From an uncultured Oscillospiraceae bacterium (GTDB lineage: Bacteria; Bacillota; Clostridia; Christensenellales; Aristaeellaceae): DNA of 58,070 nucleotides. The notes under the pieces were generated by a model. The model worked only from the letters and a program-made list of their open reading frames with translations, was not told where the DNA came from and made no database searches. The translations under genes were made by a program, and so were the position numbers. Where the stretch lies: the NCBI GenBank assembly GCA_964553125.1, contig CAZKJW010000001.1:31316-89385 (forward strand), read 5' to 3'. The stretch's first letter is position 1. The number at the start of each line of letters is the position of its first letter. Shown one piece after another: positions 793 to 52,120 of the stretch.

Positions 793-822
793 AGAGCCCG
801 ATTGCAAGGGCTCTTTCTTTTT
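793..822 (+). terminator. Rho-independent terminator
   Basis: AGAGCCC-gattgcaa-GGGCTCT plus TTCTTTTT. A 24-nt stretch is identical to the terminator at 5715-5745. Confidence 0.75.
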
Positions 823-867
823 GCCGCTATGCGCGCTATTCTAAGATAGAAGGGCTATTCTAAATTA

Positions 868-960
868 AGGGAGTTCGAAGAAACGACTAAGGGCGAGGAC
901 ACTCCAAAGGAGTACCGTAGCCTTGTATCCAGCGCCGCTTGCAAATCGGTGATGGGCGCA
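868..960 (+). ncRNA. Conserved structured element, copy 1/3 (candidate cis-regulatory RNA, class unknown)
   Basis: AGGGAG-N11-GACTAAGGGCGAGGAC, hairpin ACTCC-AAA-GGAGT, CCGTAGCCTTGTATCCA, hairpin CCG-CTTGCAAAT-CGG, TGATGGGCGCA. See findings for the compensatory changes relative to copies 2 and 3. Confidence 0.45.
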
Positions 961-1087
961 AAAAGAATCGGGGTGGCAGATGTGGCCTTCTTGTGTTTCG
1001 AAGGAGGGCATCGAGGGCGCGTGAGCCGCCTTCTTTATGGTCGAATTCTATATTAGCAAATGCTCACTAAGAAATGGAGGTACTCAT

Positions 1088-1507
1088 GTGGGTGCAGCGA
1101 TTCGTCCTGAAATCTCTGTGAAAAACCGTTATTGGCTTCCTAAGCATCGTTATTACGAGCTGTATCATTTCTGCTTGCAATACCCGGAATGGAATAAGAA
1201 CTATCTTTCGCTTGATGGATATTCTGCAAAATCCGGAAGCGTGGTTGAGCAACAGTGTTCATATGAAACGGTAGACCCAACCGTAGTTTATGCAGAAGCA
1301 CGGCTATATTATCGTGAACGGATAGAGATGATCGAGAATGCGGCAAAGGAGGCCGCGGCAGATCTATATTTACCGATGCTTCGGGCAGTAACCGAAGGGA
1401 TTTCTTACGAGCATCTGAACGCTCAGAGCAGAATACCGTGTTGCAAAGACGTATGGTATACGATCTACAGGCGATTCTTTTGGCTTCTTGACAAGGCGCG
1501 TAAATAA
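1088..1507 (+). CDS. Putative phage transcription regulator (sigma-70 region-4-like / RinA-ArpU-like HTH); tentative
   Basis: GTG at 1088 lies 6 nt after a GGAGGT SD (the track starts at 1037). RYYELYHFCLQYPEWNK near the N-terminus. C-terminal HTH-like TEGISYEHLNAQSRIPCCKDVWYTIYRRFFWLLDKAR. The family call rests on memory of similar phage proteins. Confidence 0.35.
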   Translation: MGAAIRPEISVKNRYWLPKHRYYELYHFCLQYPEWNKNYLSLDGYSAKSGSVVEQQCSYETVDPTVVYAEARLYYRERIEMIENAAKEAAADLYLPMLRAVTEGISYEHLNAQSRIPCCKDVWYTIYRRFFWLLDKARK

Positions 1508-1523
1508 CATCGCTCCTTATGAA
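1497..1523 (+). promoter_or_regulatory. Phage-specific promoter-like motif, copy 2/9
   Basis: CGCGTAAATAACATCGCTCCTTATGAA. It overlaps the stop of the upstream gene, and AAAGGAG follows directly. Confidence 0.45.
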
Positions 1524-1536
1524 AGGAGCTGGTAAA

Positions 1537-1713
1537 ATGGGACAAACAATTTGGACGGGTTTTCTGCTAACGATCGGCTGGTTTTTATCCAGAGTTTGTA
1601 TTAGCTTTGTTGTAGGGTTTATGAATGCTCTGCTGTACAGCGTATGGCCCTGGTATCGAAAAATCATCGACGCATATGAGAGCAGAAGGTGTAATTGGAA
1701 GCGGAAATACTAA
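1537..1713 (+). CDS. 58-aa two-TM membrane protein
   Basis: ATG 9 nt after AAAGGAG. Product MGQTIWTGFLLTIGWFLSRVCISFVVGFMNALLYSVWPW... Confidence 0.55.
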   Translation: MGQTIWTGFLLTIGWFLSRVCISFVVGFMNALLYSVWPWYRKIIDAYESRRCNWKRKY

Positions 1714-3605: not shown

Positions 3606-3634
3606 GTCCACACAAGGGCTCTTGCTTTTTTCTT

Positions 3635-3661
3635 CGCGAAATTTACAATCCGTATTATGAA
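3635..3661 (+). promoter_or_regulatory. Phage-specific promoter-like motif, copy 6/9
   Basis: CGCGAAATTTACAATCCGTATTATGAA. Confidence 0.5.
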
Positions 3662-3695: not shown

Positions 3696-3827
3696 ATGGC
3701 GATGTTGAGCACGATTTTCTATGCGTTTCTGAGCATGTGTGCAATGGTTGGATGCATCAGAGCGGCGAAGTTGGTGATCAAATCGATCAACAGTCTTTTC
3801 GACAAGATTGAGGATAAACTGGGGTAA
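3696..3827 (+). CDS. 43-aa hydrophobic peptide
   Basis: GAGGAGGAA SD. Product MAMLSTIFYAFLSMCAMVGCIRAAKLVIKSINSLFDKIEDKLG. A terminator follows. Confidence 0.45.
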   Translation: MAMLSTIFYAFLSMCAMVGCIRAAKLVIKSINSLFDKIEDKLG

Positions 3828-3830
3828 TTC

Positions 3831-3870
3831 AAAGAGCGGAGGCGAGCAAGGCCTCTTGCTCTTTGTTTTG
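3831..3870 (+). terminator. Rho-independent terminator
   Basis: AAAGAGC..GAGGC-gagcaag-GCCTC..GCTCTTT plus GTTTTG. Confidence 0.65.
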
Positions 3871-3876
3871 CTGTTG

Positions 3877-3960
3877 GGGGAGGCTAAAGGCCGACTAAGG
3901 ACGAGGACATTTATCCGCAGCCCTATACCCGAAGCCGGTTGAAGACCGGATACGGGCGAA
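3877..3960 (+). ncRNA. Conserved structured element, copy 2/3
   Basis: GGGGAG-N10-GACTAAGGACGAGGA-CATTTA-TCCGCAGCCCTATACCCG-AAG-CCGG-TTGAAGA-CCGG-ATA-CGGGCGAA. It ends 20 nt before the ATG at 3981. Confidence 0.45.
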
Positions 3961-3980
3961 AATGAAAGGAGAATGGAAAG

Positions 3981-4403
3981 ATGAAAAGTTTTCTGGAAAC
4001 CGTGATCGGGGGCGCAATCGGCATGATCGCGCTCTATGTGGTGGGCAAGGTTGCCTATCAGGCCGGCAAGGAAGTAGCAAAGGCGGAATGCGAATATGAG
4101 GCGCTTCGCAAGGATGTCAATAAGGATGGTTCTGGCACAACCGTCGCTCATGGGGTAAACCAGGACGGCGAGGAAGTGAGCGTCGTTTGGGAACGGACGG
4201 ACGCTGATTCCAAGCAAACCCCCGGTTCGTGTTCCAAGCGTTCTGGCAAGCTGTCCATGGCGCTAAATGCGATGAAGCTCTTCAGGCGCAAGGATTCTGT
4301 GATTGGGGATTTGGTGAAACACCCCGAGGCCCACAAGATCGAGGCATTTGTGGAAGGGAATGATTTGCACATCAACGTATCGAAACGACCAGCATTCGCG
4401 TAA
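3981..4403 (+). CDS. Membrane-anchored protein (N-terminal TM, 140 aa)
   Basis: AAAGGAGAA SD. Product MKSFLETVIGGAIGMIALYVVGKVAY... Confidence 0.65.
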   Translation: MKSFLETVIGGAIGMIALYVVGKVAYQAGKEVAKAECEYEALRKDVNKDGSGTTVAHGVNQDGEEVSVVWERTDADSKQTPGSCSKRSGKLSMALNAMKLFRRKDSVIGDLVKHPEAHKIEAFVEGNDLHINVSKRPAFA

Positions 4404-4724: not shown

Positions 4725-5507
4725 ATGACGAACTGGCTGAAACGAAATGCTTCCACCATTCTGACGTGTTTGGGTGCGCTGGGCTTGGTGGGTACGGTGG
4801 TGCTGGCGGTGAGGGACACGCCCAAGGCCATGCGGGCGCTGACGGACGCCAAGGTGGAGAAGGGCTCCACAGAACTGACCAAGCTGGAGGCGGCGAAAGC
4901 GGCTGTACCTGCCTATCTGCCAACGATTGCTGCCGGAACAGGGACGCTGATCTGTTTGTTCGGTGCGAACGTACTCAGCCGCAAGCAGCAGGCATCACTC
5001 ATCAGCGCGTATGTGACACTGGATCAGGCGTTTGCGGATTATCGGGCGAAGGTAATCTCGTTCGGTGGAAAGGAACTGGACAAGGCGGCTCAGGATGCGG
5101 TAGAAGCCGAGCAGAAGGATAAGGACGAGGAACGTCCGCCGTGGGACGAAAAGCAGACCTTCTACCTGCAAGGGTATCCGAAGTTCTTTGAGGCGACCAT
5201 GGAACAGGTGCGATGTGCAGAATATGTACTGAATCGCAACTTTGTGCTTCGGGGAACCGTAACCTTCAATGAATTCCTGCGCTTTCTGGGCTTGGATGAC
5301 ATAGGCGAAAAAGGCGAAAAGATCGGCTGGGAGAGCTATATCGGCGAGGCATTCTACGGCTACTCATGGATCGATTTCGACCATATTTACCGCGTTACGG
5401 ACGATGGTTTGGCGATTTGCGAAATCTCCATGCCCTTCCTGCCCCACGGCTTTGACGAGGAGGAATGGAACGCTGAGGATAGTGTTCAAACCTGTGGTGC
5501 GGAGTGA
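4725..5507 (+). CDS. Membrane protein, paralog A of a 3-member family (unknown function)
   Basis: N-terminal TM (ILTCLGALGLVGTVVLAVRDTPKA), a second TM, then AYV..DYRAKV and NEFLRFLGL..GW blocks shared with 6082 and 8231. Confidence 0.7.
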   Translation: MTNWLKRNASTILTCLGALGLVGTVVLAVRDTPKAMRALTDAKVEKGSTELTKLEAAKAAVPAYLPTIAAGTGTLICLFGANVLSRKQQASLISAYVTLDQAFADYRAKVISFGGKELDKAAQDAVEAEQKDKDEERPPWDEKQTFYLQGYPKFFEATMEQVRCAEYVLNRNFVLRGTVTFNEFLRFLGLDDIGEKGEKIGWESYIGEAFYGYSWIDFDHIYRVTDDGLAICEISMPFLPHGFDEEEWNAEDSVQTCGAE

Positions 5508-5714: not shown

Positions 5715-5745
5715 AGAGCCCGATTGCAAGGGCTCTTTTCTTTTT
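5715..5745 (+). terminator. Rho-independent terminator (near-duplicate of 793-822)
   Basis: AGAGCCC-gattgcaa-GGGCTCT plus TTTCTTTTT. Confidence 0.75.
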
Positions 5746-5765: not shown

Positions 5766-6095
5766 ATGACGCGAGAAGAAGCCGTATCGTGTCTGCGGGA
5801 ATATCGAAGAAAAAGCATGTGCAGGTCGTCTAAACAGCTATTTGGGTGGAGGCCGAATTATGATTTCAACAAAACCGTATACGAACGATACCTGATCCTT
5901 GAATTGATCGAACGAATCAATCAATCGTCTATGCCGCCGGTTGAAGTGATTCGTCAGTTTTATTATGAAATGGACGACATGTTGTGCGAGAGCGAATGCT
6001 CAAAGACGTGGGCATTTGCGTCTACAATGGAAAACTGTGCCGGAGATATATTGAGATATCTCCGTGGAAGGGAGAAAGAGAATGAACAAAATTGA
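5766..6095 (+). CDS. Hypothetical protein (109 aa)
   Basis: ORF-track frame. Overlaps the next gene start by 14 nt. Confidence 0.6.
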   Translation: MTREEAVSCLREYRRKSMCRSSKQLFGWRPNYDFNKTVYERYLILELIERINQSSMPPVEVIRQFYYEMDDMLCESECSKTWAFASTMENCAGDILRYLRGREKENEQN

Positions 6096-6852
6096 CTGGA
6101 AAGCAACGTGCGGCCGGGTTTCGCTGATGCTGAAAAAACATAGCCCGGAAATTTTGACCGGCATTGGTATCAGCGGCATGATTACCACAACCGTTCTGGC
6201 GGTACGCGCCACGCCTGAAGCCCTGCGCCGCATTGAAGAAAAGAAGGCAGAGCGGCATCGGAAGCTGACGGCAAAGGAGACGATTCAGGCAGCAGGGCGC
6301 TGCTATATTCCCTCTGCCATTACGGGAACGCTCTCGGCAGGCTGTCTGATTGGCGCAAGCGCCGTGAACGGACGCAGAAACGCGGCGCTGGCAACCGCAT
6401 ATAGTCTTGCAGAAACGGGCCTCCGGGATTATAGAGCCAAGGTAGTCGAAACGATTGGCGAACGCAAGGAAACAGCTATTCTGGAAGCGATGGACCGGGA
6501 GCGAGTGGAGAAGAATCCACCAGCAGCAAGCGATGTTGCTTATGTGGAAGGCAGTGGGCAGACGCTGTGCTATGACGCCATGTTTGGGCGATATTTCTAC
6601 TCGGACATCGAGAAGCTGAACCGCGCTGTGAATAAGCTCAATCGTCAGATGAGTACGATGAGCGAGCCTTATATTTCCTTGAATGAATTTTACATGGAGA
6701 TCAATCTGCCAACGGTGGAGATTGGCGATTCGCTGGGATGGAATGTGAATAAGGGAATGATCGAACTGCGATTCTCATCCCAGCTGGCTGGCGGCCGTAC
6801 ACCGTGCCTTGTGATGAGTTATGCCATTGCGCCGGAGTACGATTACTTTTGA
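6082..6852 (+). CDS. Membrane protein, paralog B
   Basis: GGGAGAAAGAG SD before the ATG at 6082. LKKHSPEILTGIGISGMITTTVLAVRATPEA, AYS..DYRAKVVE and LNEFYMEINL..GW. Confidence 0.7.
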   Translation: MNKIDWKATCGRVSLMLKKHSPEILTGIGISGMITTTVLAVRATPEALRRIEEKKAERHRKLTAKETIQAAGRCYIPSAITGTLSAGCLIGASAVNGRRNAALATAYSLAETGLRDYRAKVVETIGERKETAILEAMDRERVEKNPPAASDVAYVEGSGQTLCYDAMFGRYFYSDIEKLNRAVNKLNRQMSTMSEPYISLNEFYMEINLPTVEIGDSLGWNVNKGMIELRFSSQLAGGRTPCLVMSYAIAPEYDYF

Positions 6853-7925: not shown

Positions 7926-8231
7926 ATGAAAGACAATATTAACCATCCGGAGCATTATAAAACCAAAAACGGTTTGGAGACAATTGATGTGATCGAAGCG
8001 TTTACGCAAGGGCTTTCGGGCGGCGAAGCGACCAACACGGGCAACGTCCTCAAGTATATGTGTCGCTGGAAGAAAAAGAACGGTTTGGAGGATCTGAAGA
8101 AGGCGCAGTGGTATCTGAATCGTCTGATCGATTCGGTCGAGAGCAAGCAGAAAGAAGAAATGCTTTCTGCGTGTTCCGCGCTGAGCGCCACGACAGCGCA
8201 TAACGAAACAGAGAACGGGAGGTTCTATTGA
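7926..8231 (+). CDS. DUF3310-family phage protein
   Basis: NHPEHYK...IDVIEAF...GNVLKYMCRWKKKNGLEDLKKAQWYLNRLI matches my recollection of the DUF3310 signature. Confidence 0.75.
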   Translation: MKDNINHPEHYKTKNGLETIDVIEAFTQGLSGGEATNTGNVLKYMCRWKKKNGLEDLKKAQWYLNRLIDSVESKQKEEMLSACSALSATTAHNETENGRFY

Positions 8232-9139
8232 TGAAAATGGATATTTCGAATTTTACCAGCAAGGCAAAGCTGGTTTTGAAGAAACACAGCCCGGAAATTC
8301 TGGTGTTTCTGGGCATTGGGGGCACGGTAACAGGCGCGGTGATGGCCTGCAAGGCAACACGCAAGATGGATGATGTGCTGGCTGATCACGCTGAACGTGT
8401 GGAAACGGTCAAAAAACGGGATCCGGACGATAAAAAGGAACTGACAAAGGCATATGCGCACACTGGCGTTCAGCTTGTGAAGCTGTACGGTCCGTCGATC
8501 ACGGTGGGTGCGCTGTCTGTCAGCAGCATTCTGGCGGGCAACAGTATTCTGCGCAAGCGCAACGTGGCGCTGGCTGCGGCTTATGCGGCGGTGGATCAGG
8601 GATTTAAGGACTACCGGGGCCGTGTGGTGGAACGCTTCGGCGCGGAAACGGATAACGAACTTCGCCACAATCTGCATAAGGAAAAGATTGACGAAACGGT
8701 TGAGGATGAGAACGGCAAGAAAAAGAAGGTTAAGCGCGAGATTACAGTGGTCGGTGACGACGCGCCCAGCGATTACGCACGGTACTTTGTGAAGGGCGAG
8801 GCCAAGGCCGCAGAAGGAAACGATAGCTACGATCTCTTTTATCTCCGTTCCCAGCAAGAATTGGCGAATCATATGCTGCGCGCCAGAGGCTTCGTTACGT
8901 TGAACGACGCGTATGAACTGCTGGGCATCGATCCTTCTGTTGCCGGACAAATGGTCGGCTGGGTCTACGATAAGAACGACGATGCCCACGGCGACAACTA
9001 TATTGACTTCCGGATTCAGGAGGTTTATCGCAAACGCAGTGACACGCCCGGTGATTACGAGAAGGTATTTCTCATTGATCCCAATGTGGACGGCGGCATT
9101 CTGGATCATGCAGTGGCAAAGGGTCTGATCACAATGTGA
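8231..9139 (+). CDS. Membrane protein, paralog C
   Basis: GGGAGG 8 nt before the ATG at 8231. LKKHSPEILVFLGIGGTVTGAVMACKATRK, AAYA..DYRGRVVERFG and LNDAYELLGI..GW. Confidence 0.7.
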   Translation: MKMDISNFTSKAKLVLKKHSPEILVFLGIGGTVTGAVMACKATRKMDDVLADHAERVETVKKRDPDDKKELTKAYAHTGVQLVKLYGPSITVGALSVSSILAGNSILRKRNVALAAAYAAVDQGFKDYRGRVVERFGAETDNELRHNLHKEKIDETVEDENGKKKKVKREITVVGDDAPSDYARYFVKGEAKAAEGNDSYDLFYLRSQQELANHMLRARGFVTLNDAYELLGIDPSVAGQMVGWVYDKNDDAHGDNYIDFRIQEVYRKRSDTPGDYEKVFLIDPNVDGGILDHAVAKGLITM

Positions 9140-9452: not shown

Positions 9453-9484
9453 GACCATCGAACTTAGTGTTAACTTAGATTAGA

Positions 9485-9577
9485 AGGGAGCCCGTAGGGT
9501 GACTAAGGGCGAGGACATTCTGAAAGAGTGCCGCAGCCCTGTACCCGAAGCCGGTTGAAGACCGGATGCGGGCGAGA
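9485..9577 (+). ncRNA. Conserved structured element, copy 3/3
   Basis: AGGGAG-CCCGTAGGG-T-GACTAAGGGCGAGGA, hairpin CATTC-TGAAA-GAGTG, CCGCAGCCCTGTACCCG-AAG-CCGG-TTGAAGA-CCGG-ATG-CGGGCGAGA. AAAAGGAGGG follows. Confidence 0.45.
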
Positions 9578-9614
9578 CAGAAAAGGAGGGAGCGCCTCTG
9601 CGGCGCGCAATGGT

Positions 9615-9917
9615 ATGTTTTGGGCAATTATTCTGACTTTCGTAATGACGGTGCTGGCAATGCTGGTGCTGTTTCTTCGTGACGGCAACATGAAGCAGGC
9701 GAAGGAGAACCATCGTCTTCACAGTGAAAACGATGATTTGAAGCGTCAGATTTCCGGCTATTACGATCAGGATCAGCGTCGCAGGGAACGCTCCGCTTAT
9801 GATCGCGGGCTTTATGACGGACGGCAGACAGACGCGCTGTATCGCAATGTACTCAAGCGATATTCTGTGCGGGAGCAGGCGGACGTGATGATGAACGGCG
9901 AGGAGGCGAAGCAATGA
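9615..9917 (+). CDS. Membrane-anchored protein (100 aa)
   Basis: Product MFWAIILTFVMTVLAMLVLFL... The track start at 9528 would translate through the structured element. The start is uncertain because the SD is 27 nt away. Confidence 0.5.
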   Translation: MFWAIILTFVMTVLAMLVLFLRDGNMKQAKENHRLHSENDDLKRQISGYYDQDQRRRERSAYDRGLYDGRQTDALYRNVLKRYSVREQADVMMNGEEAKQ

Positions 9918-24868: not shown

Positions 24869-25373
24869 TTATCACTGGATTGGCTACGACGAAACCAAAC
24901 TGGCGGAGACCTACAAGCGCAAACAGGCGATTGCAAAGGGCACAGAGCTTCACGAGTTTGCCGCCCGGTGCATTCGGCTGGGGCAGAAGCTGCCCAAGAG
25001 CCAGAAAACGCTCAACATGCATGTCAACGACGCCATCGGCTACAAGATGACGGCCGAGGTTCCTTTATATTATTCCCCCAATTGCTACGGGACGGCAGAC
25101 GCTATTTCCTTTCGGAACGGCATGCTGCGCATTCATGATTTGAAAACAGGCGAAACCCCGGCGCACATGGAGCAGCTGATGATCTATGCGGCGCTTTTTT
25201 GTTTGGAATACCGCGTGAAGCCCGCCGACATCAAGATGGAGCTTCGCCTGTATCAGAACGACCAGATCATTTATCATAACCCCGAGGTGGATGAGATTGT
25301 GCCAGTGATGGACAAGATTGTCAGCTTCGACAAAATCATCAACCGCATCAGAGAAGAGGAGGGCGAAGCATGA
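24810..25373 (+). CDS. PD-(D/E)XK (RecB/Cas4-like, DUF2800-like) nuclease
   Basis: THALLSPSNYHW, GTELHEF, GTADAISF..GMLRIHDLKTGE, QLMIYAALF. No Cys cluster. Confidence 0.65.
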   Translation: MNWNRHSEVEGTHALLSPSNYHWIGYDETKLAETYKRKQAIAKGTELHEFAARCIRLGQKLPKSQKTLNMHVNDAIGYKMTAEVPLYYSPNCYGTADAISFRNGMLRIHDLKTGETPAHMEQLMIYAALFCLEYRVKPADIKMELRLYQNDQIIYHNPEVDEIVPVMDKIVSFDKIINRIREEEGEA

Positions 25374-28141
25374 ACCGGGTCGGTGACGAAATTTTGATGC
25401 ACTACGGCGTGAGCGCCAAGGACGGCGCACCGGGGCGCGGTTCAGGCCGGTACCCTCTGGGAAGCGGCGAAGACCCAAACCAGCATCGCGGGGATTTTGC
25501 CAGCCGCGTACAGGAGCTGCGCAAGGCCGGCATGAGCGAAAAAGATATTGTGACGGCGCTGGGACTGAAAAGCACCTCTGAGCTGCGCGCAAGATATTCC
25601 ACGGCGGTGAACGAGCAGCGGACGCAGAAGATTGCCCGCGCCCGGCAGATGCTGGACGAGGGACGGAGCCGGGCGGAGATTGCCCGCGAAATGGGCATTA
25701 ACGAATCGACCCTGCGATCTCTTTTGAACGAGCGAAGCGCAGAGCGTACGCGGGCAGCACAGATCACCGCCGATTTTCTTCGGGCGCAAATCGAAGAAAA
25801 GGGAATGATCGACGTGGGCACCGGGGTGGAGCTGGAGCTGGGCGTGAGCAAGGAAAAGCTGAACCAGGCGCTGGCCATGCTGGAAGAGGAAGGCTATGTG
25901 CTCTATGGCGGCGGCGTGCCGCAGGTGACAAACCCCGGCAAGCAGACGAACATTAAGGTCATCTGCCCGCCCGGCACAGAACACAGGGAAATTTATGACT
26001 TTGAAAATGTCCACACGATTACGGATTACAAGATGCGGGTGGATGAGAACGGCGAGGAGCATTTTGAAAAGGGGTTTGAATACCCCGCTTCGCTGGACTC
26101 CAGCCGCTTGCAGATTCGCTATCGCGATGACGTAACGCCCGATGGCCACGCCGCCATTGAAAAGGACGGAACCATTGAGATTCGCCGCGGCTGCGCAGAC
26201 CTTGACCTTGGCGAAAGCCATTACGCGCAGGTGCGGATTCTGGTGGACGGGGACAAGTACCTCAAAGGCATGGCGTTCTACTCGGACGACCTGCCGGACG
26301 GCATCGATGTGGCGTTCAACACCAACAAATCGCCCGGACAGGAAGCGCTGAAGAAAGCCAAGACGGACGACCCGAACAATCCCTTCGGCGCGCTGATCAA
26401 GGAAGAGGGCGGACAGTACCACTACACCGATGAAAATGGAGAGCGCAAGCTGGGCCTCATCAACAAGACCCGCGCTGAAGGCGACTGGGGCGAATGGGCG
26501 GACGCGCTTCCTTCGCAGTTTCTTTCCAAGCAGAGCCAGCAGCTGATTAACAAGCAGCTTGGTTTGGCGATTGCGGACAAGCAGATGGAGTTTGACGAGA
26601 TTTGCGCGCTGACCAACCCCACGGTGAAGAAGCAGCTACTGGAGACCTTTGCCAACGACTGCGATTCGGCGGCGGTGCATTTGCAGGCGGCGGCCCTGCC
26701 GCGGCAGAAGTATCAGGTGATCCTGCCTATCGCTTCTCTCAAGGACAACGAGGTATACGCGCCCAACTATCAGGACGGCGAAACGGTGGCGCTGATCCGC
26801 TATCCTCACGGCGGCACGTTTGAGATTCCGATCCTGACGGTGAACAACAAGCAGGCGGATGGACGGCGCATTCTGGGGACGAACCCTGCAGATGCCATTG
26901 GCATCAATGCAGAGGTGGCGGCCCGCCTGTCTGGCGCCGACTTTGACGGCGACACCGTGATGGTCATTCCCTGCAACTCCTCCTCAAGCAAGGTGAAGAT
27001 CACTTCGACCCGTGCGCTGGAAGGCTTGAAGGACTTTGACAACAAGATGGAGTATGGCTCGACGGTGAAGGTAGACGCGGACGGTACGGAACACTACTAC
27101 CACAACGGCCATGAATTCAAGCGCATGACCAAGAGCCAGACCCAGATGGAGATGGGCAAGATCTCCAATCTGATTACCGACATGACGCTCAAGGGCGCGA
27201 CCACGGAAGAGCTGACCAAAGCCGTGCGGCACAGCATGGTTGTCATCGATGCGGAGAAGCACAAGCTGGACTGGAAGCAGAGCGAGATTGACAACGACAT
27301 CCCGGCGCTGAAAAGGAAGTACCAGATGCGCGTCGACGAGGACGGCAGCGTTCACACCGGGGCATCCACACTGATCTCGCGCGCCAAATCCCCCGTCGCG
27401 GTGCTCAAGCGCAAGGGCAGCCCAAAGATCGACCCCGACACCGGCGAGCTGGTCTACAAGGAGGTCGTGGAGGAATACACCGACAAGCACGGAAAGACCC
27501 GCGTGCGCACACAGGACTCCACGCAGATGGCGGAGACGCGGGATGCGCGGACGCTTTCCAGCGGGACTCCGCAGGAAGAAGCTTATGCTGCTTATGCCAA
27601 CAAGATGAAGGCTTTGGCGAACGAAGCGCGCAAGGAGATCATCTCCACAGGACGCATCCAGTACAGCGCGTCCGCCAGAGCCGCCTATGCGGAGGAGGTC
27701 GATTATCTGACCGCCCAACTGAATGTGGCGCTGAAGAACGCCCCGCGCGAGAGACAGGCGCAGCTTGCTGCTAACAGCGAGGTGAAGGCGATGAAAAAAG
27801 CGAACCCTGGAATGACCCAAAAAGAGGTCAAGAAACAGGCGCAGCTGGCGCTGTCGAGGGCGCGGACAAGGTACGGCGCGAAGCGCAATCCCGTCAACAT
27901 CACTGCCCGCGGATGGGAAGCGATTCAGGCAGGGGCAATCAGCGAGAACGTACTGAGCCAGATTCTCCGCTTTGCAGACACCGATCAGGTGAGAGCCTAC
28001 GCGACACCGCGCACAACCACGGCATTGTCCACAGGAAAACAGGCTCGCATTAAAGCGATGCGCGCTTCTGGCTACACAAACAGCGAGATTGCGCAGGCGC
28101 TTGGCATCTCGGCCTCAACCGTGTCGAAATACAGCAATTGA
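25370..28141 (+). CDS. YonO/QDE-1-like single-subunit two-barrel RNA polymerase with N- and C-terminal HTH motifs
   Basis: ETVALIRYPHGG...LSGADFDGDTVMVIP, then ~65 aa later MGKISNLITD (the DxDGD ... GxISN catalytic signature). HTH-like GRSRAEIAREMGINESTLRSLL and GYTNSEIAQALGISASTVSKY. N-terminal MHYGV...GSGRYPLGSGEDP. Confidence 0.6.
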   Translation: MNRVGDEILMHYGVSAKDGAPGRGSGRYPLGSGEDPNQHRGDFASRVQELRKAGMSEKDIVTALGLKSTSELRARYSTAVNEQRTQKIARARQMLDEGRSRAEIAREMGINESTLRSLLNERSAERTRAAQITADFLRAQIEEKGMIDVGTGVELELGVSKEKLNQALAMLEEEGYVLYGGGVPQVTNPGKQTNIKVICPPGTEHREIYDFENVHTITDYKMRVDENGEEHFEKGFEYPASLDSSRLQIRYRDDVTPDGHAAIEKDGTIEIRRGCADLDLGESHYAQVRILVDGDKYLKGMAFYSDDLPDGIDVAFNTNKSPGQEALKKAKTDDPNNPFGALIKEEGGQYHYTDENGERKLGLINKTRAEGDWGEWADALPSQFLSKQSQQLINKQLGLAIADKQMEFDEICALTNPTVKKQLLETFANDCDSAAVHLQAAALPRQKYQVILPIASLKDNEVYAPNYQDGETVALIRYPHGGTFEIPILTVNNKQADGRRILGTNPADAIGINAEVAARLSGADFDGDTVMVIPCNSSSSKVKITSTRALEGLKDFDNKMEYGSTVKVDADGTEHYYHNGHEFKRMTKSQTQMEMGKISNLITDMTLKGATTEELTKAVRHSMVVIDAEKHKLDWKQSEIDNDIPALKRKYQMRVDEDGSVHTGASTLISRAKSPVAVLKRKGSPKIDPDTGELVYKEVVEEYTDKHGKTRVRTQDSTQMAETRDARTLSSGTPQEEAYAAYANKMKALANEARKEIISTGRIQYSASARAAYAEEVDYLTAQLNVALKNAPRERQAQLAANSEVKAMKKANPGMTQKEVKKQAQLALSRARTRYGAKRNPVNITARGWEAIQAGAISENVLSQILRFADTDQVRAYATPRTTTALSTGKQARIKAMRASGYTNSEIAQALGISASTVSKYSN

Positions 28142-31233: not shown

Positions 31234-31749
31234 ATGGCTACGGAACGCTTTTGTAAAAACTGTGGTGCTGAACTCGATGCTAAAGCAAAATTCTGTTCCG
31301 GATGTGGAACGCGTGTTGAGAGTGTTTCGCTGACAAAACCGCTTATTGATCTGATTTGTGAAAATTGTGGGAGTTCTTTGAAAGTGTCACACGACGATCA
31401 AACAATGGCAATATGTCCGCATTGTGGCCATAATCATATGATTCCGTCAAATCGAAGCGTGAAAATTCAGCAAATCAAAAGCGATACACATAAAGCGATC
31501 GAATTAGACAGACAGAAAACCCTGCGACTCATTTCTGAGCGCGAACAGACCAACAAAGAAAAAGAAAATGAAACCTCTTTTCTAAAATGGCTGGTTGAAA
31601 GTTTGCTTGCACGGAGTGGCACCGTTATCGGAACCCTATTCTGCTTATTGGCGCTCCTATTCGAGAATATACGGGGTCTGTTGCTATTTGGGCTCATTCT
31701 TTTATTTGTCGACACAATCGCATCTAAATTAAAAAAAAACAATCATTGA
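31234..31749 (+). CDS. Double zinc-ribbon protein with C-terminal TM helices
   Basis: CKNCG..CSGCG and CENCG..CPHCG pairs. C-terminal GTVIGTLFCLLALLF...LLLFGLILLFV. Confidence 0.6.
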   Translation: MATERFCKNCGAELDAKAKFCSGCGTRVESVSLTKPLIDLICENCGSSLKVSHDDQTMAICPHCGHNHMIPSNRSVKIQQIKSDTHKAIELDRQKTLRLISEREQTNKEKENETSFLKWLVESLLARSGTVIGTLFCLLALLFENIRGLLLFGLILLFVDTIASKLKKNNH

Positions 31750-49785: not shown

Positions 49786-50010
49786 ATGAAAACGTATGGG
49801 GAATTCGGGAAAATCATTGAACAGATTCGTGAGGCGTCAGATCGGATTGAAGTAAAAGGGCGCGTCAACCGGGCATACGCGGATTTTATTTTCGACAAAT
49901 GCAATGAGCTTATTCGGATACTGAATGAAGCGGCAGAACGCGCTAATGATCATGGAAAAGAGGGGGAGAGGGATGGCAAGCCAGATCAAGATATGGCTGG
50001 ACAAGATTAA
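49786..50010 (+). CDS. Hypothetical protein (74 aa)
   Basis: GGAGGAAGGA SD. Overlaps the fibre gene start. Confidence 0.4.
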   Translation: MKTYGEFGKIIEQIREASDRIEVKGRVNRAYADFIFDKCNELIRILNEAAERANDHGKEGERDGKPDQDMAGQD

Positions 50011-52120
50011 GACAGCTGTCTATGGTGTTGAAGTGCGTGATGCGATACATGACAGTATTGCAGAATGCTATGATAATGTTACCGATGCAAAAACCCTTGC
50101 GGAGGATGCCACGACAGGAGCAAACATCGCGGCTCAAAATGCACAGGCAAAAGCTGCGCTTGCCGATGCTGCCGCCCAAAATGCTGATGTAAAAGCGGCA
50201 CTGGCAGAGGAAAAAGCAACACTTGCCGATGAAAAAGCGACGGCCGCAAGCGCTGCGGCGGAGAGTGCGGAAACGGCGGCAGAAAATGCCAATACGGCAA
50301 AAGAGAAAGCTGCTGCAGCAGCGACAAATGCCGAGGAAAAAGCTGCACTGTCGGAAACCGCGGCTGCAAACGCTAATGCAAAGGCTGCGTTGGCAGGAGA
50401 GAAAGCGGAACTGGCTGATACGGCCGCAAAGAATGCAGATACGAAGGCTGACATGGCTGATGGAGCGGCAAAGAATGCCGATACAAAAGCTGCCCTTGCC
50501 GATTCTGCGGCAACCAACGCTGATACGGCCAGCGCTTCGGCAGAAACTGCGGCAGCAAATGCTGAGGCGGCAGCAGCAAAAGCGAATACAGCAGCAGACA
50601 ACGCGGATACTAAGGCGAGTCTTGCAGCAACGGCTGCGGGAAATGCAAATATAGCGATAACGGCGGCAAATGATGCGGCGGCAAACGCAAATGCTGCCAA
50701 GAGCGCATGCGAAAAAGCCACCACCAATGTGCAAACTGCCATTACAAATGCGAATGATAAAGCCGCATTGGCAGAGAGCGCCGCACAGAACGCTGACGAC
50801 AAAGCAGCCCTTGCAAATGGAGCAGCGGCAAACGCGGAGGAGAAAGCGGCCCTTGCGAACACCAAAGCCAGTTTGGCAGACGAACGAATTGCCGTTATCA
50901 ACAGCAAAATTGAGAGCGCCGACGCAGCTGTGGCCAAGGCAGAGAAGGCTGCCGCAGATGCCAATCAAGCTGCGGACAATGCGTCAAAGGGAATCATCGG
51001 CCAAGCAAGCAGCAACGCATTAGGCGGGGTAAAAGCCGACACCAAAACCGAGAATGATACGCAGGCTGTTCGCATTGATACGGAAAGCGGCAAGCTTTAC
51101 ACCGCCGGACTTCCAACAGCGAGCAGTGATGTACTGGGCGGAGTGAAAGTTGGCGAGAATTTGCTTGTCGATACCAATGGGGTTATGAAGGTCGACACAA
51201 CTGATGAAGTGGCGGAAACGGAGAAACCCATTGCTGCTAATGCTGTCTATGCTGTTATGCAGAACACACAGCAAAAAATTGTTGCTTCTGGTTTGCTTAA
51301 GGGAGATGGTGCCGGCGGCGTGAACACGGCTGTCGCAGGGGAGGACTATGTTGCGCCGCAGGAAGGAAAAAACCTTTCGACAAATGATTACACCAATGAA
51401 GAGAAACAGAAGCTGAGCGGGATCGAGACAGGGGCAAACGCTTATAATCATCCCACTCATTCACCTTATGAATCGGGATTTTATAAGATGACAGTGGACG
51501 AGAAGGGGCATGTGACTGCTGCTGTTGGCGTAGAAAAAGCGGATATCACCGCATTGGGAATCCCGGCGCAGGACACAACGTACCAACTGGCATCGGCTGA
51601 TGAGGCGGGACTTCTCTCTGCTGCAGATAAAACGAAGCTGGATAGTGTTGAAAGCGGAGCGGAGAAAAATATACCACCCACATGGACGGCACTTGAGGGA
51701 AAGCCGGAAGCGTTTACACCGGTATCTCATGAGCATGCGATAGGGAATATTTCCGGCCTGGAGGAAGCGTTGGCGGGAAAAGTGGATATAGAGGCTGGAA
51801 AAGCCCTTTCCACCAACGACTACACCACCGTTGAGAAGAACAAGCTGGCCGGGCTTTCCGCGCCCGTCGCCGTGACCGTCACGCTGGCGGCTGCGTCATG
51901 GACGGAGGGTACGGACAGCGCGACGCAGACGGTCAACGTGACCGGCGTGACGGCGACGAACAGCGTTATTGTACAGGCTGCGCCCGCAAGCCGTGAAGCG
52001 TGGCTGGAAGCGGACGTGTACTGTTCTGCGCAGGGCGCGGGGACGCTGACGTTCACCTGCGAAGCCGCCCCTGAAAGCGCGCTGACCGCGAACGTGCTCA
52101 TTTTGGAGGTGTCCGGATGA
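49973..52120 (+). CDS. Tail fibre with a long Ala-rich repeat stalk
   Basis: The ATG at 49973 follows GGGGGAGAGGG. About 300 aa of A-(x)-NA-(D/E)-xKAALA-type repeats. Repeated LGGVK and STNDYT..EK.KL motifs. Confidence 0.7.
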   Translation: MASQIKIWLDKIKTAVYGVEVRDAIHDSIAECYDNVTDAKTLAEDATTGANIAAQNAQAKAALADAAAQNADVKAALAEEKATLADEKATAASAAAESAETAAENANTAKEKAAAAATNAEEKAALSETAAANANAKAALAGEKAELADTAAKNADTKADMADGAAKNADTKAALADSAATNADTASASAETAAANAEAAAAKANTAADNADTKASLAATAAGNANIAITAANDAAANANAAKSACEKATTNVQTAITNANDKAALAESAAQNADDKAALANGAAANAEEKAALANTKASLADERIAVINSKIESADAAVAKAEKAAADANQAADNASKGIIGQASSNALGGVKADTKTENDTQAVRIDTESGKLYTAGLPTASSDVLGGVKVGENLLVDTNGVMKVDTTDEVAETEKPIAANAVYAVMQNTQQKIVASGLLKGDGAGGVNTAVAGEDYVAPQEGKNLSTNDYTNEEKQKLSGIETGANAYNHPTHSPYESGFYKMTVDEKGHVTAAVGVEKADITALGIPAQDTTYQLASADEAGLLSAADKTKLDSVESGAEKNIPPTWTALEGKPEAFTPVSHEHAIGNISGLEEALAGKVDIEAGKALSTNDYTTVEKNKLAGLSAPVAVTVTLAAASWTEGTDSATQTVNVTGVTATNSVIVQAAPASREAWLEADVYCSAQGAGTLTFTCEAAPESALTANVLILEVSG

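Follow-up and report, generated by a model that had tools for sequence, protein, structure and literature searches.

The stretch of DNA analysed here, called the window throughout, comprises 58,070 nucleotides of contig CAZKJW010000001.1 from an uncultured Oscillospiraceae bacterium (positions 31,316 to 89,385 of the forward strand; assembly GCA_964553125.1) and holds an almost complete temperate siphophage, whose nearest named relative is Faecalibacterium phage FP_oengus. The genes of this phage encode a primase-polymerase, a helicase, a single-strand annealing protein, an exonuclease and HNH endonucleases, together with an anaerobic ribonucleotide reductase, terminase, portal and tail proteins and an integrase, and its first 12 kb are a plus strand row of small genes parted by intrinsic terminators (36 terminator-like sites against 11 expected). 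Between genes of this early region lie three plus strand copies of an element of about 88-97 nt that is made of three consecutive hairpins (P1, P2 and P3). This element family, which is real and previously undescribed, is the subject of the present work. It had first been pointed out in a reading of the letters without database searches (hereafter the sequence-only reading), and the three segments were found where that reading had placed them, with the shared blocks, the hairpins and the distances from the end of each copy to the next start codon that it had given: 128 nt for copy 1 (gene 1088), 20 nt for copy 2 (gene 3981) and 38 nt for copy 3 (gene 9615). The copies and their parts are the following.

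866-962, plus strand: copy 1 (site a), long form, 101 bits with the covariance model.
869-888, plus strand: P1 of copy 1 with its tandem G·A extension.
890-924, plus strand: P2 of copy 1 including the apical hairpin A, after which comes the UGUA linker.
928-956, plus strand: P3 of copy 1, type II (UCCA-GCG-CCGC...CGG-UGA-UGGG), with the tail CGCAAAAAG.
3875-3962, plus strand: copy 2 (site c), short form, 92 bits and 105 bits in two model searches.
3878-3896, plus strand: P1 of copy 2.
3898-3924, plus strand: P2 of copy 2.
3928-3956, plus strand: P3 of copy 2, type I; the tail CGAAAAUGA continues into the Shine-Dalgarno sequence of gene 3981.
9483-9578, plus strand: copy 3 (site e), long form, 109 bits with the covariance model, fold z-score -4.7.
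9486-9504, plus strand: P1 of copy 3.
9506-9540, plus strand: P2 of copy 3 with hairpin A.
9544-9572, plus strand: P3 of copy 3, type I.

Alignment of the three window copies gives a mean column identity of 74%. A covariance model built from them, R1, was used on the window and on other genomes, and within the window it returned the three known copies and no other. The 15-mer GACTAAGGRCGAGGA has three exact matches in the window; when up to three mismatches are allowed the matches number 12, against 2.6 expected, the nine additional ones being coding or due to chance. A fourth copy at 5117 was considered and rejected, as only the 15-mer is present there, within a DUF6353 gene. Chance does not account for the repeat, because R1 finds independent copies in other genomes, with 90.6 bits in the related contig L090 and 45 and 29 bits in L082.

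All copies follow one plan, URA-GGGAG-P1-(Y)GACUAAG-P2-(Y)UGUA-P3-CGAAA(R). The P1 stem has 4 bp and a purine-rich loop of 3-4 nt; GGGAG and GACU come together to close it, through a tandem G·A step along with G-C and G·U pairs. It occurs in seven different stem sequences, every one of them paired, and it accounts for the spacer of 10-13 nt which the sequence-only reading had recorded without naming it as a hairpin, and which turns out to be the best-covarying helix of the element. Compared with a kink-turn, its tandem G·A pairs have no 3-nt bulge. In P2 of the window-type copies a GA/GYA internal loop separates a lower stem of 5 bp from an upper stem of 3 bp; copies 1 and 3 add an extra apical hairpin (hairpin A) whose sequence differs between the two. 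In a diverged subfamily found in the IMG/VR contig L168, P2 and P3 are changed and the linkers are kept; the lower stem of P2 reads AGGCG/CGCCU in one copy versus AGGGC/GCCCU elsewhere, which is a double compensatory change, and the other copy has an unrelated 7-bp hairpin at the P2 position. P3 is a two-tier hairpin of 11-13 bp. Three or more versions of its sequence occur, in which pairs 68-91, 70-89 and 75-84 show double changes, and its 7-nt loop (UUGAAGA or UUGCAAA) recalls a T-loop only loosely. In the short-form copies the P2 loop (CAUUUA) could pair with the A-rich tail (AAAUG or UAAAU) in a pseudoknot, which is unproven; its partners are of low complexity and the long forms are without that loop.

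The compensatory stem changes claimed in the sequence-only reading were borne out on a model-based alignment, in which pairing is kept across hairpins of differing sequence. Standard pairs fill 91.5% of the pair cells, a share that drops to 25-47% once the 3' partners are slid; in five pairs both members change, and the observed covariation score was reached by none of 500 shuffles. Pair cells with G·U number 30 and those with A·C seven, five of the latter in the two degenerate copies of L082, and this excess marks the plus strand as the one that folds. Minimum free energy folds of most copies give the three hairpins back, with z-scores of -1.5 to -4.7 on the plus strand and of +0.3 to -2.7 on the minus strand. 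Since the hairpin A indel, of at least 8 nt, shifts the frame between copies, and since relatives can lack all of it and still keep every gene, the element is non-coding. The minus strand open reading frames over copies 2 and 3 (3895-4080 and 9503-9691) overlap real plus strand genes; the earlier argument that they read the shared nucleotides in different frames is correct 3' of the 8-nt indel and is moot given the empty sites in relatives. The description of the element as structured, strand-specific and non-coding is supported.

The sequence-only reading could assign the element to no class, and the Rfam search proposed with it likewise placed the element in no family. Rfam 15 at gathering thresholds gave no match to the element over the whole window, and relaxing the E-value to 10 for the 12-kb region and for the isolated copies brought up noise only (at most 13 bits, against 37-70 required). 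ARAGORN detected neither a tRNA nor a tmRNA gene in the window, and a tRNA-like fold was rejected on that result. A terminator on either strand was likewise rejected, hairpin 3 being followed by an A-rich and not a U-rich tail, as was a sigma-70 promoter inside the element, where the TTGAAG of the hairpin 3 loop lacks a usable -10 partner and does not occur in L168. The likeness of GGACGAGG...UACCCG to the guanidine-III riboswitch is confined to copy 2 and goes unscored by Rfam. Neither an anti-Shine-Dalgarno sequence nor an alternative pairing of the terminator/antiterminator kind is present in the copies. Exact-pattern scans with the window-type blocks gave only chance matches in coding sequence, both in IMG/VR and the JGI metagenomes and in 185,579 bacterial and archaeal species-representative genomes (GTDB), where the element was not found; blastn of copy 3 against GenBank phages gave chance 25-nt matches only, and FP_oengus and other relatives of gene 1088 are without the element.

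Syntenic relatives were found via homologues of the protein 3981-4403 and of the 43-aa protein 3696-3827, and 80 of the 577 IMG/VR contigs that encode a polymerase relative were searched as well. The covariance-model search of relatives, which the sequence-only reading had also proposed, found further copies in related phage contigs: at least eight distinct ones beyond the three of the window, the diverged L168 subfamily included. The distinct full-length copies number eleven in total, plus fragments at contig ends; several assembly contigs start or stop inside the element, as is expected of a repeat. Carriers outside the window are the following.

L082: two copies.
L090, L160, L162, L165, L167 and L094: a copy directly after the stop codon of the gene 1088 homologue (site b).
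L164 and L106-108: a copy at site c.
L160, L086, L087 and L167: a copy after the small open reading frame behind the third DUF6353 gene (site e').
L168: two diverged copies, the sole carrier among the 80 polymerase relatives.
L249 and L252: pairs of copies identical to those of L168.

A regular expression for the linkers, run over the 80 relatives, found no further copies. The 3' part of the element is not conserved in the L168 subfamily. The distribution is narrow, being limited to a sub-clade of Oengusvirus-like temperate phages of Faecalibacterium within a very common group of gut phages.

Copies sit at no fewer than seven independent intergenic sites, always in sense orientation, and filled and empty alleles with conserved flanks were compared at sites a, b, c, e and e'.

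Site a: filled in the window; empty in L083 and L090, where TATTCTAAGTTAGATT runs directly into GGGGTGGCAG.
Site b, after the stop codon of the gene 1088 homologue: empty in the window, filled in relatives.
Site c: filled in the window, L082, L164 and L106-108; empty in L083, L085 and L081, where the terminator abuts the Shine-Dalgarno sequence.
Site d, after the second DUF6353 gene: empty in the window, filled in relatives.
Site e: filled in the window; empty in L083, L106 and L159, where TTAACTTAGATT runs directly into AAAAGGAGGG, and also in L082; L168 has a diverged copy with the same right junction as in the window.
Site e', after the small open reading frame: empty in the window, filled in relatives.
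Site f, between a 201-aa gene and a DUF3310 gene in L168: empty in the window.

Relative to L083 and L090, copy 1 is a clean insertion between TATTCTAA(G/A)TTA and GGGGTGGCAG, and TTAGATT stands 5' of the insertion point at both site a and site e. The copy at site b has a perfect 13-nt direct repeat, GGCGCGTAAATAA, on both sides; the first four bases of this repeat coincide with the element's own 3' GGCG, with 9 nt beyond that GGCG. The flanks at site e' are AAAATGA and AAAAATGA (a repeat of 7-8 nt), and the identical tail follows the site c copies, while sites a, c and e show degenerate flanking repeats or none. Left flanks end in WTRA-like sequence (ATAA, ATGA, TTAA, TTGA, AGAA), which amounts to a fixed target loosely at most. 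Terminal inverted repeats are absent, the ends GGGAGG... and ...ACGGGCG not being reverse complements, and neither a transposase nor a reverse transcriptase was found in the window, where no TnpA or TnpB was seen either. Copies are also mosaic: the two copies of L160 are identical over about 70 nt 3' of P1 and have wholly different P1 hairpins, and in L164 a 5' part of the L160 type is joined to a type II P3. At one and the same site (site c in the window, L164 and L082), copies differ by changes that preserve pairs (G-C to A-U, U·G to C-G), which suggests that selection may have acted after insertion. By the evidence of these alleles the element is a dispensable and clearly mobile cassette copied between sites, in a pattern that fits copy-choice or illegitimate recombination and not a transposase. 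The simplest mechanism for its spread would be microhomology-guided template switching or relaxed recombination between copies; because the flanking repeats vary in length, microhomology-mediated template switching fits better than a fixed target duplication.

The surroundings of the copies are those of an early region in which nearly every small gene of the first 12 kb is its own terminator-bounded unit. Features close to the copies, or repeated among these genes, are listed here.

793-822, plus strand: intrinsic terminator 5' of copy 1, outside the element, a member of the repeated terminator family (D6, D11).
793-822, 1733-1762, 2535-2557, 2892-2926, 3613-3635, 3835-3864 and 5715-5744: near-identical intrinsic terminators, the family ending GGCTCTTTCTTTTT.
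838-866, plus strand: two direct repeats, TATTCTAA(G) / TATTCTAAG, 22 nt apart, directly 5' of copy 1.
1013-1040, plus strand: terminator-like hairpin with a T tract in the leader from copy 1 to gene 1088, kept in relatives without the element.
3835-3868, plus strand: intrinsic terminator 13 nt 5' of copy 2, outside the element.
655, 1497, 2065, 2555, 3299, 3635, 5510, 6895 and 24124, plus strand: CGCGAAA motif.

The repeats at 838-866, which come shortly before the leader of the first early gene, are probably the early promoter or operator. Repeats with the same 22-nt spacing occur at L083 80-112 and L090 890-925, at filled and empty sites alike, and more distant relatives have a palindromic version of them, CTATCTTAGAATAG. 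Further downstream, the leader of gene 1088 (975-1040, plus strand) can form two mutually exclusive hairpins, CCTTC-N11-GAAGG versus GAAGGAGGGC...GCCGCCTTC with the T tract; the arrangement resembles an attenuator and is retained in relatives without the element. Gene 1088 itself had been called sigma-like, a label that proved unsupported: neither Pfam nor PDB gave a match, and the one hit was to phrog_11237, whose function is unknown. The 64-aa gene that follows it has its Shine-Dalgarno sequence within a perfect 7-bp hairpin, GCTCCTT-ATGA-AAGGAGC (1496-1539, plus strand), which is conserved in relatives. The CGCGAAA motif is a second intergenic motif found on the plus strand only, CGCG(A/G/T)AA-N12-13-(T/C)WTTATG(A/G)A, also seen as CGCGAAA-N12-13-TATTATGAA. 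It usually stands just past a terminator, 20-45 nt ahead of a start codon, with a -10-like TATTAT and the box near -30, and thus looks like a phage-specific promoter or operator. Element copies at sites b and d adjoin this motif, and the 3' end of the element, GGGCGAAAA, resembles the motif's 5' box.

Gene 25370-28141 (plus strand) encodes a protein of 923 aa that matches phrog_4291 (annotated as 'RNA-dependent RNA polymerase'), carries a GADFDGD motif and has helix-turn-helix or sigma-region-4-like domains at both ends; a PDB sequence search with it detected no relative. GADFDGD is the catalytic motif of two-barrel RNA polymerases, and the promoter of the YonO polymerase family is unknown (PMC5467207). 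For the 923-aa protein, motif and domains thus suggest a single-chain two-barrel RNA polymerase of the YonO kind, fused to DNA-binding domains. The genes 3' of the copies are unrelated to one another and comprise phrog_11237, small proteins of 140 aa and 100 aa, proteins of 58 aa and 91 aa, and DUF3310. Three DUF6353 paralogues (4725-5507, 6064-6852 and 8228-9139, plus strand) also lie in the early region, and the triplet occurs in all relatives. At about 407-512 of the minus strand there is the 3' half of a tRNA (T arm and acceptor strand), followed by terminators, which probably marks the core of the attachment site at the prophage's left end; a sub-threshold Rfam match to 'rimP leader' at the same place is an artefact of this tRNA half. 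Far from the early region, nine tandem repeats of 42 nt (14 aa) at 50149-50799 (plus strand) lie within the 731-aa protein 49925-52120, probably a tail fibre.

The reading that we favour, if tentatively and at somewhat less than an even chance, is that the element is an accessory, strand-specific RNA module of early mRNAs with an intercistronic role in 5' stabilisation or processing, spread by copy-choice recombination. The element would be transcribed within early mRNAs and would act in cis on the RNA that carries it; action on its own transcript fits the pairing selected in three helices, the conserved purine-rich linkers, the folding of the plus strand and the many sites tolerated. Cleavage could occur in the A/U-rich sequence just 5' of the element, leaving a 5' end made of the non-initiating, Shine-Dalgarno-like GGGAG(G) and then three stable hairpins, and such an end would resist 5'-to-3' decay and raise the expression of the next cistron. 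GGGAG(G) is found in every intact copy, and ATG, GTG or TTG follows within about 12 nt 3' in none but copy 3, so that the hallmark of a STAB-SD, a Shine-Dalgarno-like sequence that is untranslated and has no start codon at initiating distance, is present as a sequence feature alone.

Several points weigh against this reading. Close relatives lack the element at every site. The uniform orientation is weak evidence for an RNA function, since copy-choice between collinear genomes would produce it without any need for selection, and empty intergenic gaps of just 10-60 nt largely dictate the nearness to gene starts and Shine-Dalgarno sequences. In the model, part of GGGAG is engaged in pairs (G·U, G-C and the tandem G·A that closes P1). 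A generic stabiliser leaves the conservation of the linkers GACUAAG, UGUA and CGAAA unexplained; they suggest a specific partner. The L082 copies, with broken outer P3 and broken lower P2, look like decay, which also fits a selfish repeat. The covariation support, finally, is good but small-sample, resting on few independent events in a small and closely related family.

On another view the element would be a selfish or neutral structured DNA repeat that brings the phage no benefit as RNA and whose hairpins matter only in single-stranded DNA, for example by replication stalling and template switching, or as sites for a trans-acting nuclease or recombinase. This explanation, although a serious rival, we hold to be unlikely. 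It accords with the presence/absence polymorphism at every site, the direct repeats or microhomology at the junctions, the mosaic and decaying copies and the contigs that break inside the element; DNA hairpins tolerate G·T pairs, and among the phage's proteins are a single-strand annealing protein, an exonuclease and HNH endonucleases. Against it stand the lack of terminal inverted repeats, flanking repeats of 13 nt, of 7-8 nt or none, and the lack of any transposase found in the window, and also a conservation that is highest in the internal linkers and not at the ends, and the pair-preserving differences among site c copies. In a further reading, which we regard as unlikely, a new class of phage RNA would act in cis through a specific molecular activity, such as making the polymerase (host or YonO-like) resistant to terminators or cleaving itself, and would spread as a self-contained cassette of about 90 nt, with one recombination event being enough for any early cistron to gain that activity. 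As an action of the RNA, antitermination of the put or EAR kind is the next most likely after stabilisation or processing, even if, taken as an explanation on its own, it is decidedly unlikely: the nascent element would bind its own polymerase, as HK022 put or the Bacillus EAR does, and terminators would be read through. Plus strand terminators at 1013, 1726, 2517, 3604, 3844, 4664, 5714 and 7244 would give such an RNA work to do, copy 1 stands directly 3' of the promoter- or operator-like repeats and 5' of the leader terminator, and three more terminators come after copy 2. Stem-loops in series 1-4 nt apart, several sense copies per genome and compensatory differences fit as well, and putL and putR were reportedly described in the same terms by King et al. 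in 1996 (stem-loop series, compensatory differences). However, relatives without the element keep the same terminators, sites e, e' and f have no strong terminator 3' within the region scanned, and neither a sequence relation to put or EAR nor an Rfam match exists.

Self-cleavage by a ribozyme of a new class, cutting polycistronic early transcripts between cistrons, is very unlikely. Phage ribozymes typically occur in several copies, sporadically, between genes and in sense orientation; the element shares this distribution, and it has variable helices joined by short invariant linkers. Yet it matches none of the hammerhead, twister, twister-sister, pistol, hatchet and hepatitis delta virus (HDV) models (E up to 10, short stretches), the data support neither a closing helix nor a pseudoknot, and three independent hairpins in series correspond to no known ribozyme architecture. 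It is also very unlikely that the element is a DNA-level signal, that is, a promoter or regulator site for the YonO-like polymerase or another phage factor. The sequence-only reading had offered a hairpin promoter for the phage polymerase as its alternative, and such a polymerase, single-chain, two-barrel and with helix-turn-helix domains, is indeed encoded, whereas nothing favours the promoter itself, apart from copy 2 occupying the slot between terminator and gene that the CGCGAAA...TATTATG motif holds in other transcription units. No sigma-70-type -35/-10 pair lies within the element, its 3' part is unconserved in the L168 subfamily, covarying stems and a G·U excess are unexpected for a site in duplex DNA, all but L168 of the 80 relatives with 65-78% identical polymerase-primase genes are without the element, and the copies lie in the early region and not ahead of late genes. 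A riboswitch, or a protein-binding translational operator, for the next gene is equally unlikely. Conserved single-stranded linkers between variable helices, and a 3' tail that enters the Shine-Dalgarno sequence at sites c, e, e' and f, would suit it; the downstream genes are unrelated, however, no anti-Shine-Dalgarno sequence and no terminator/antiterminator alternative is found, Rfam holds no matching aptamer, and the element is dispensable, being absent from orthologous leaders in relatives. The element is not a metabolite riboswitch. The earlier proposal of a cis-regulatory RNA for the downstream gene is unsupported as stated, with mutually unrelated genes downstream and no expression platform, and with close relatives that lack the element at the same sites and keep the flanking genes, terminators and ribosome-binding sites. 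Overall, then, the sequence-only reading was partly supported.

When known systems are compared, the closest in behaviour are the PeSL 'mobile regulatory cassettes' of T4-type phages, composites of an early promoter and a terminator stem-loop that flank shuffled open reading frames (Arbiol et al., 2010, PMC2839356; Comeau et al., 2014, PMC4122927). Like these, the element is a short, repeated intergenic stem-loop module in a single orientation, dispersed among small early genes; it sits at insertion, deletion or replacement differences between close relatives and spreads by recombination without a transposase. Its location at indel breakpoints is seen at seven positions and in the mosaics, but the early sigma-70 promoter joined to the stem-loop is not found. 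Unlike PeSL, the element has neither such a promoter nor a terminator, it has three hairpins with conserved linkers, and it moves without an open reading frame.

The put RNAs of HK022 and EAR of the Bacillus eps operon are cis-acting sense RNAs of processive antitermination, 70-120 nt long and made of consecutive stem-loops; put has two hairpins, and putL and putR are paralogous copies in one genome with compensatory differences. The element resembles them as a sense stem-loop series in a terminator-rich setting where antitermination would pay, and differs in that it has no sequence or model similarity, has three hairpins, is optional in close relatives and has some copies without a downstream terminator. 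STAB-SD of cryIIIA and the polypurine stabilisers of phage SP82 of Bacillus are short 5' sequences that need no conserved downstream hairpins or linkers. With these the element shares a purine run of Shine-Dalgarno type without a start codon at its extreme 5' edge and a stable structure adjacent to it, whereas its GGGAG is partly base-paired and its hairpins and linkers are conserved. The resemblance to put, EAR and STAB-SD may be one of mode of action at most. Miniature inverted-repeat transposable elements (MITEs) and palindrome-associated transposable elements (PATEs), which are non-autonomous derivatives of IS elements, IS200/IS605 among them, likewise occur in many small non-coding copies that contain hairpins and leave clean filled and empty sites, and the short direct repeats around two recent insertions of the element recall them. 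However, the element has no terminal inverted repeats, its flanking repeats are variable or absent and its conserved positions are internal; it is not a MITE in the strict sense. Its hairpins near both ends and its lack of inverted repeats would fit a PATE of the IS200/IS605 type, for which insertion 3' of a fixed tetra- or pentanucleotide is characteristic; the left flanks agree with this only loosely, and the perfect repeats at sites b and e' argue against that type.

Faecalibacterium is among the most abundant bacteria of the human gut, and the phage group concerned is common, as the 577 IMG/VR contigs with a polymerase relative attest. Should the element indeed be an accessory RNA module of early mRNAs, it would be a clear case of a regulatory RNA spread by recombination and not by a transposase, and should it prove an antiterminator or ribozyme, the very short list of such classes would grow by one. 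Placed in front of any gene, a portable structured RNA module would also be a compact natural 'part' with which to tune expression in Clostridia. Note also that sibling phages hold the exact filled and empty alleles at the same sites, a natural control which makes the function of the element directly testable.

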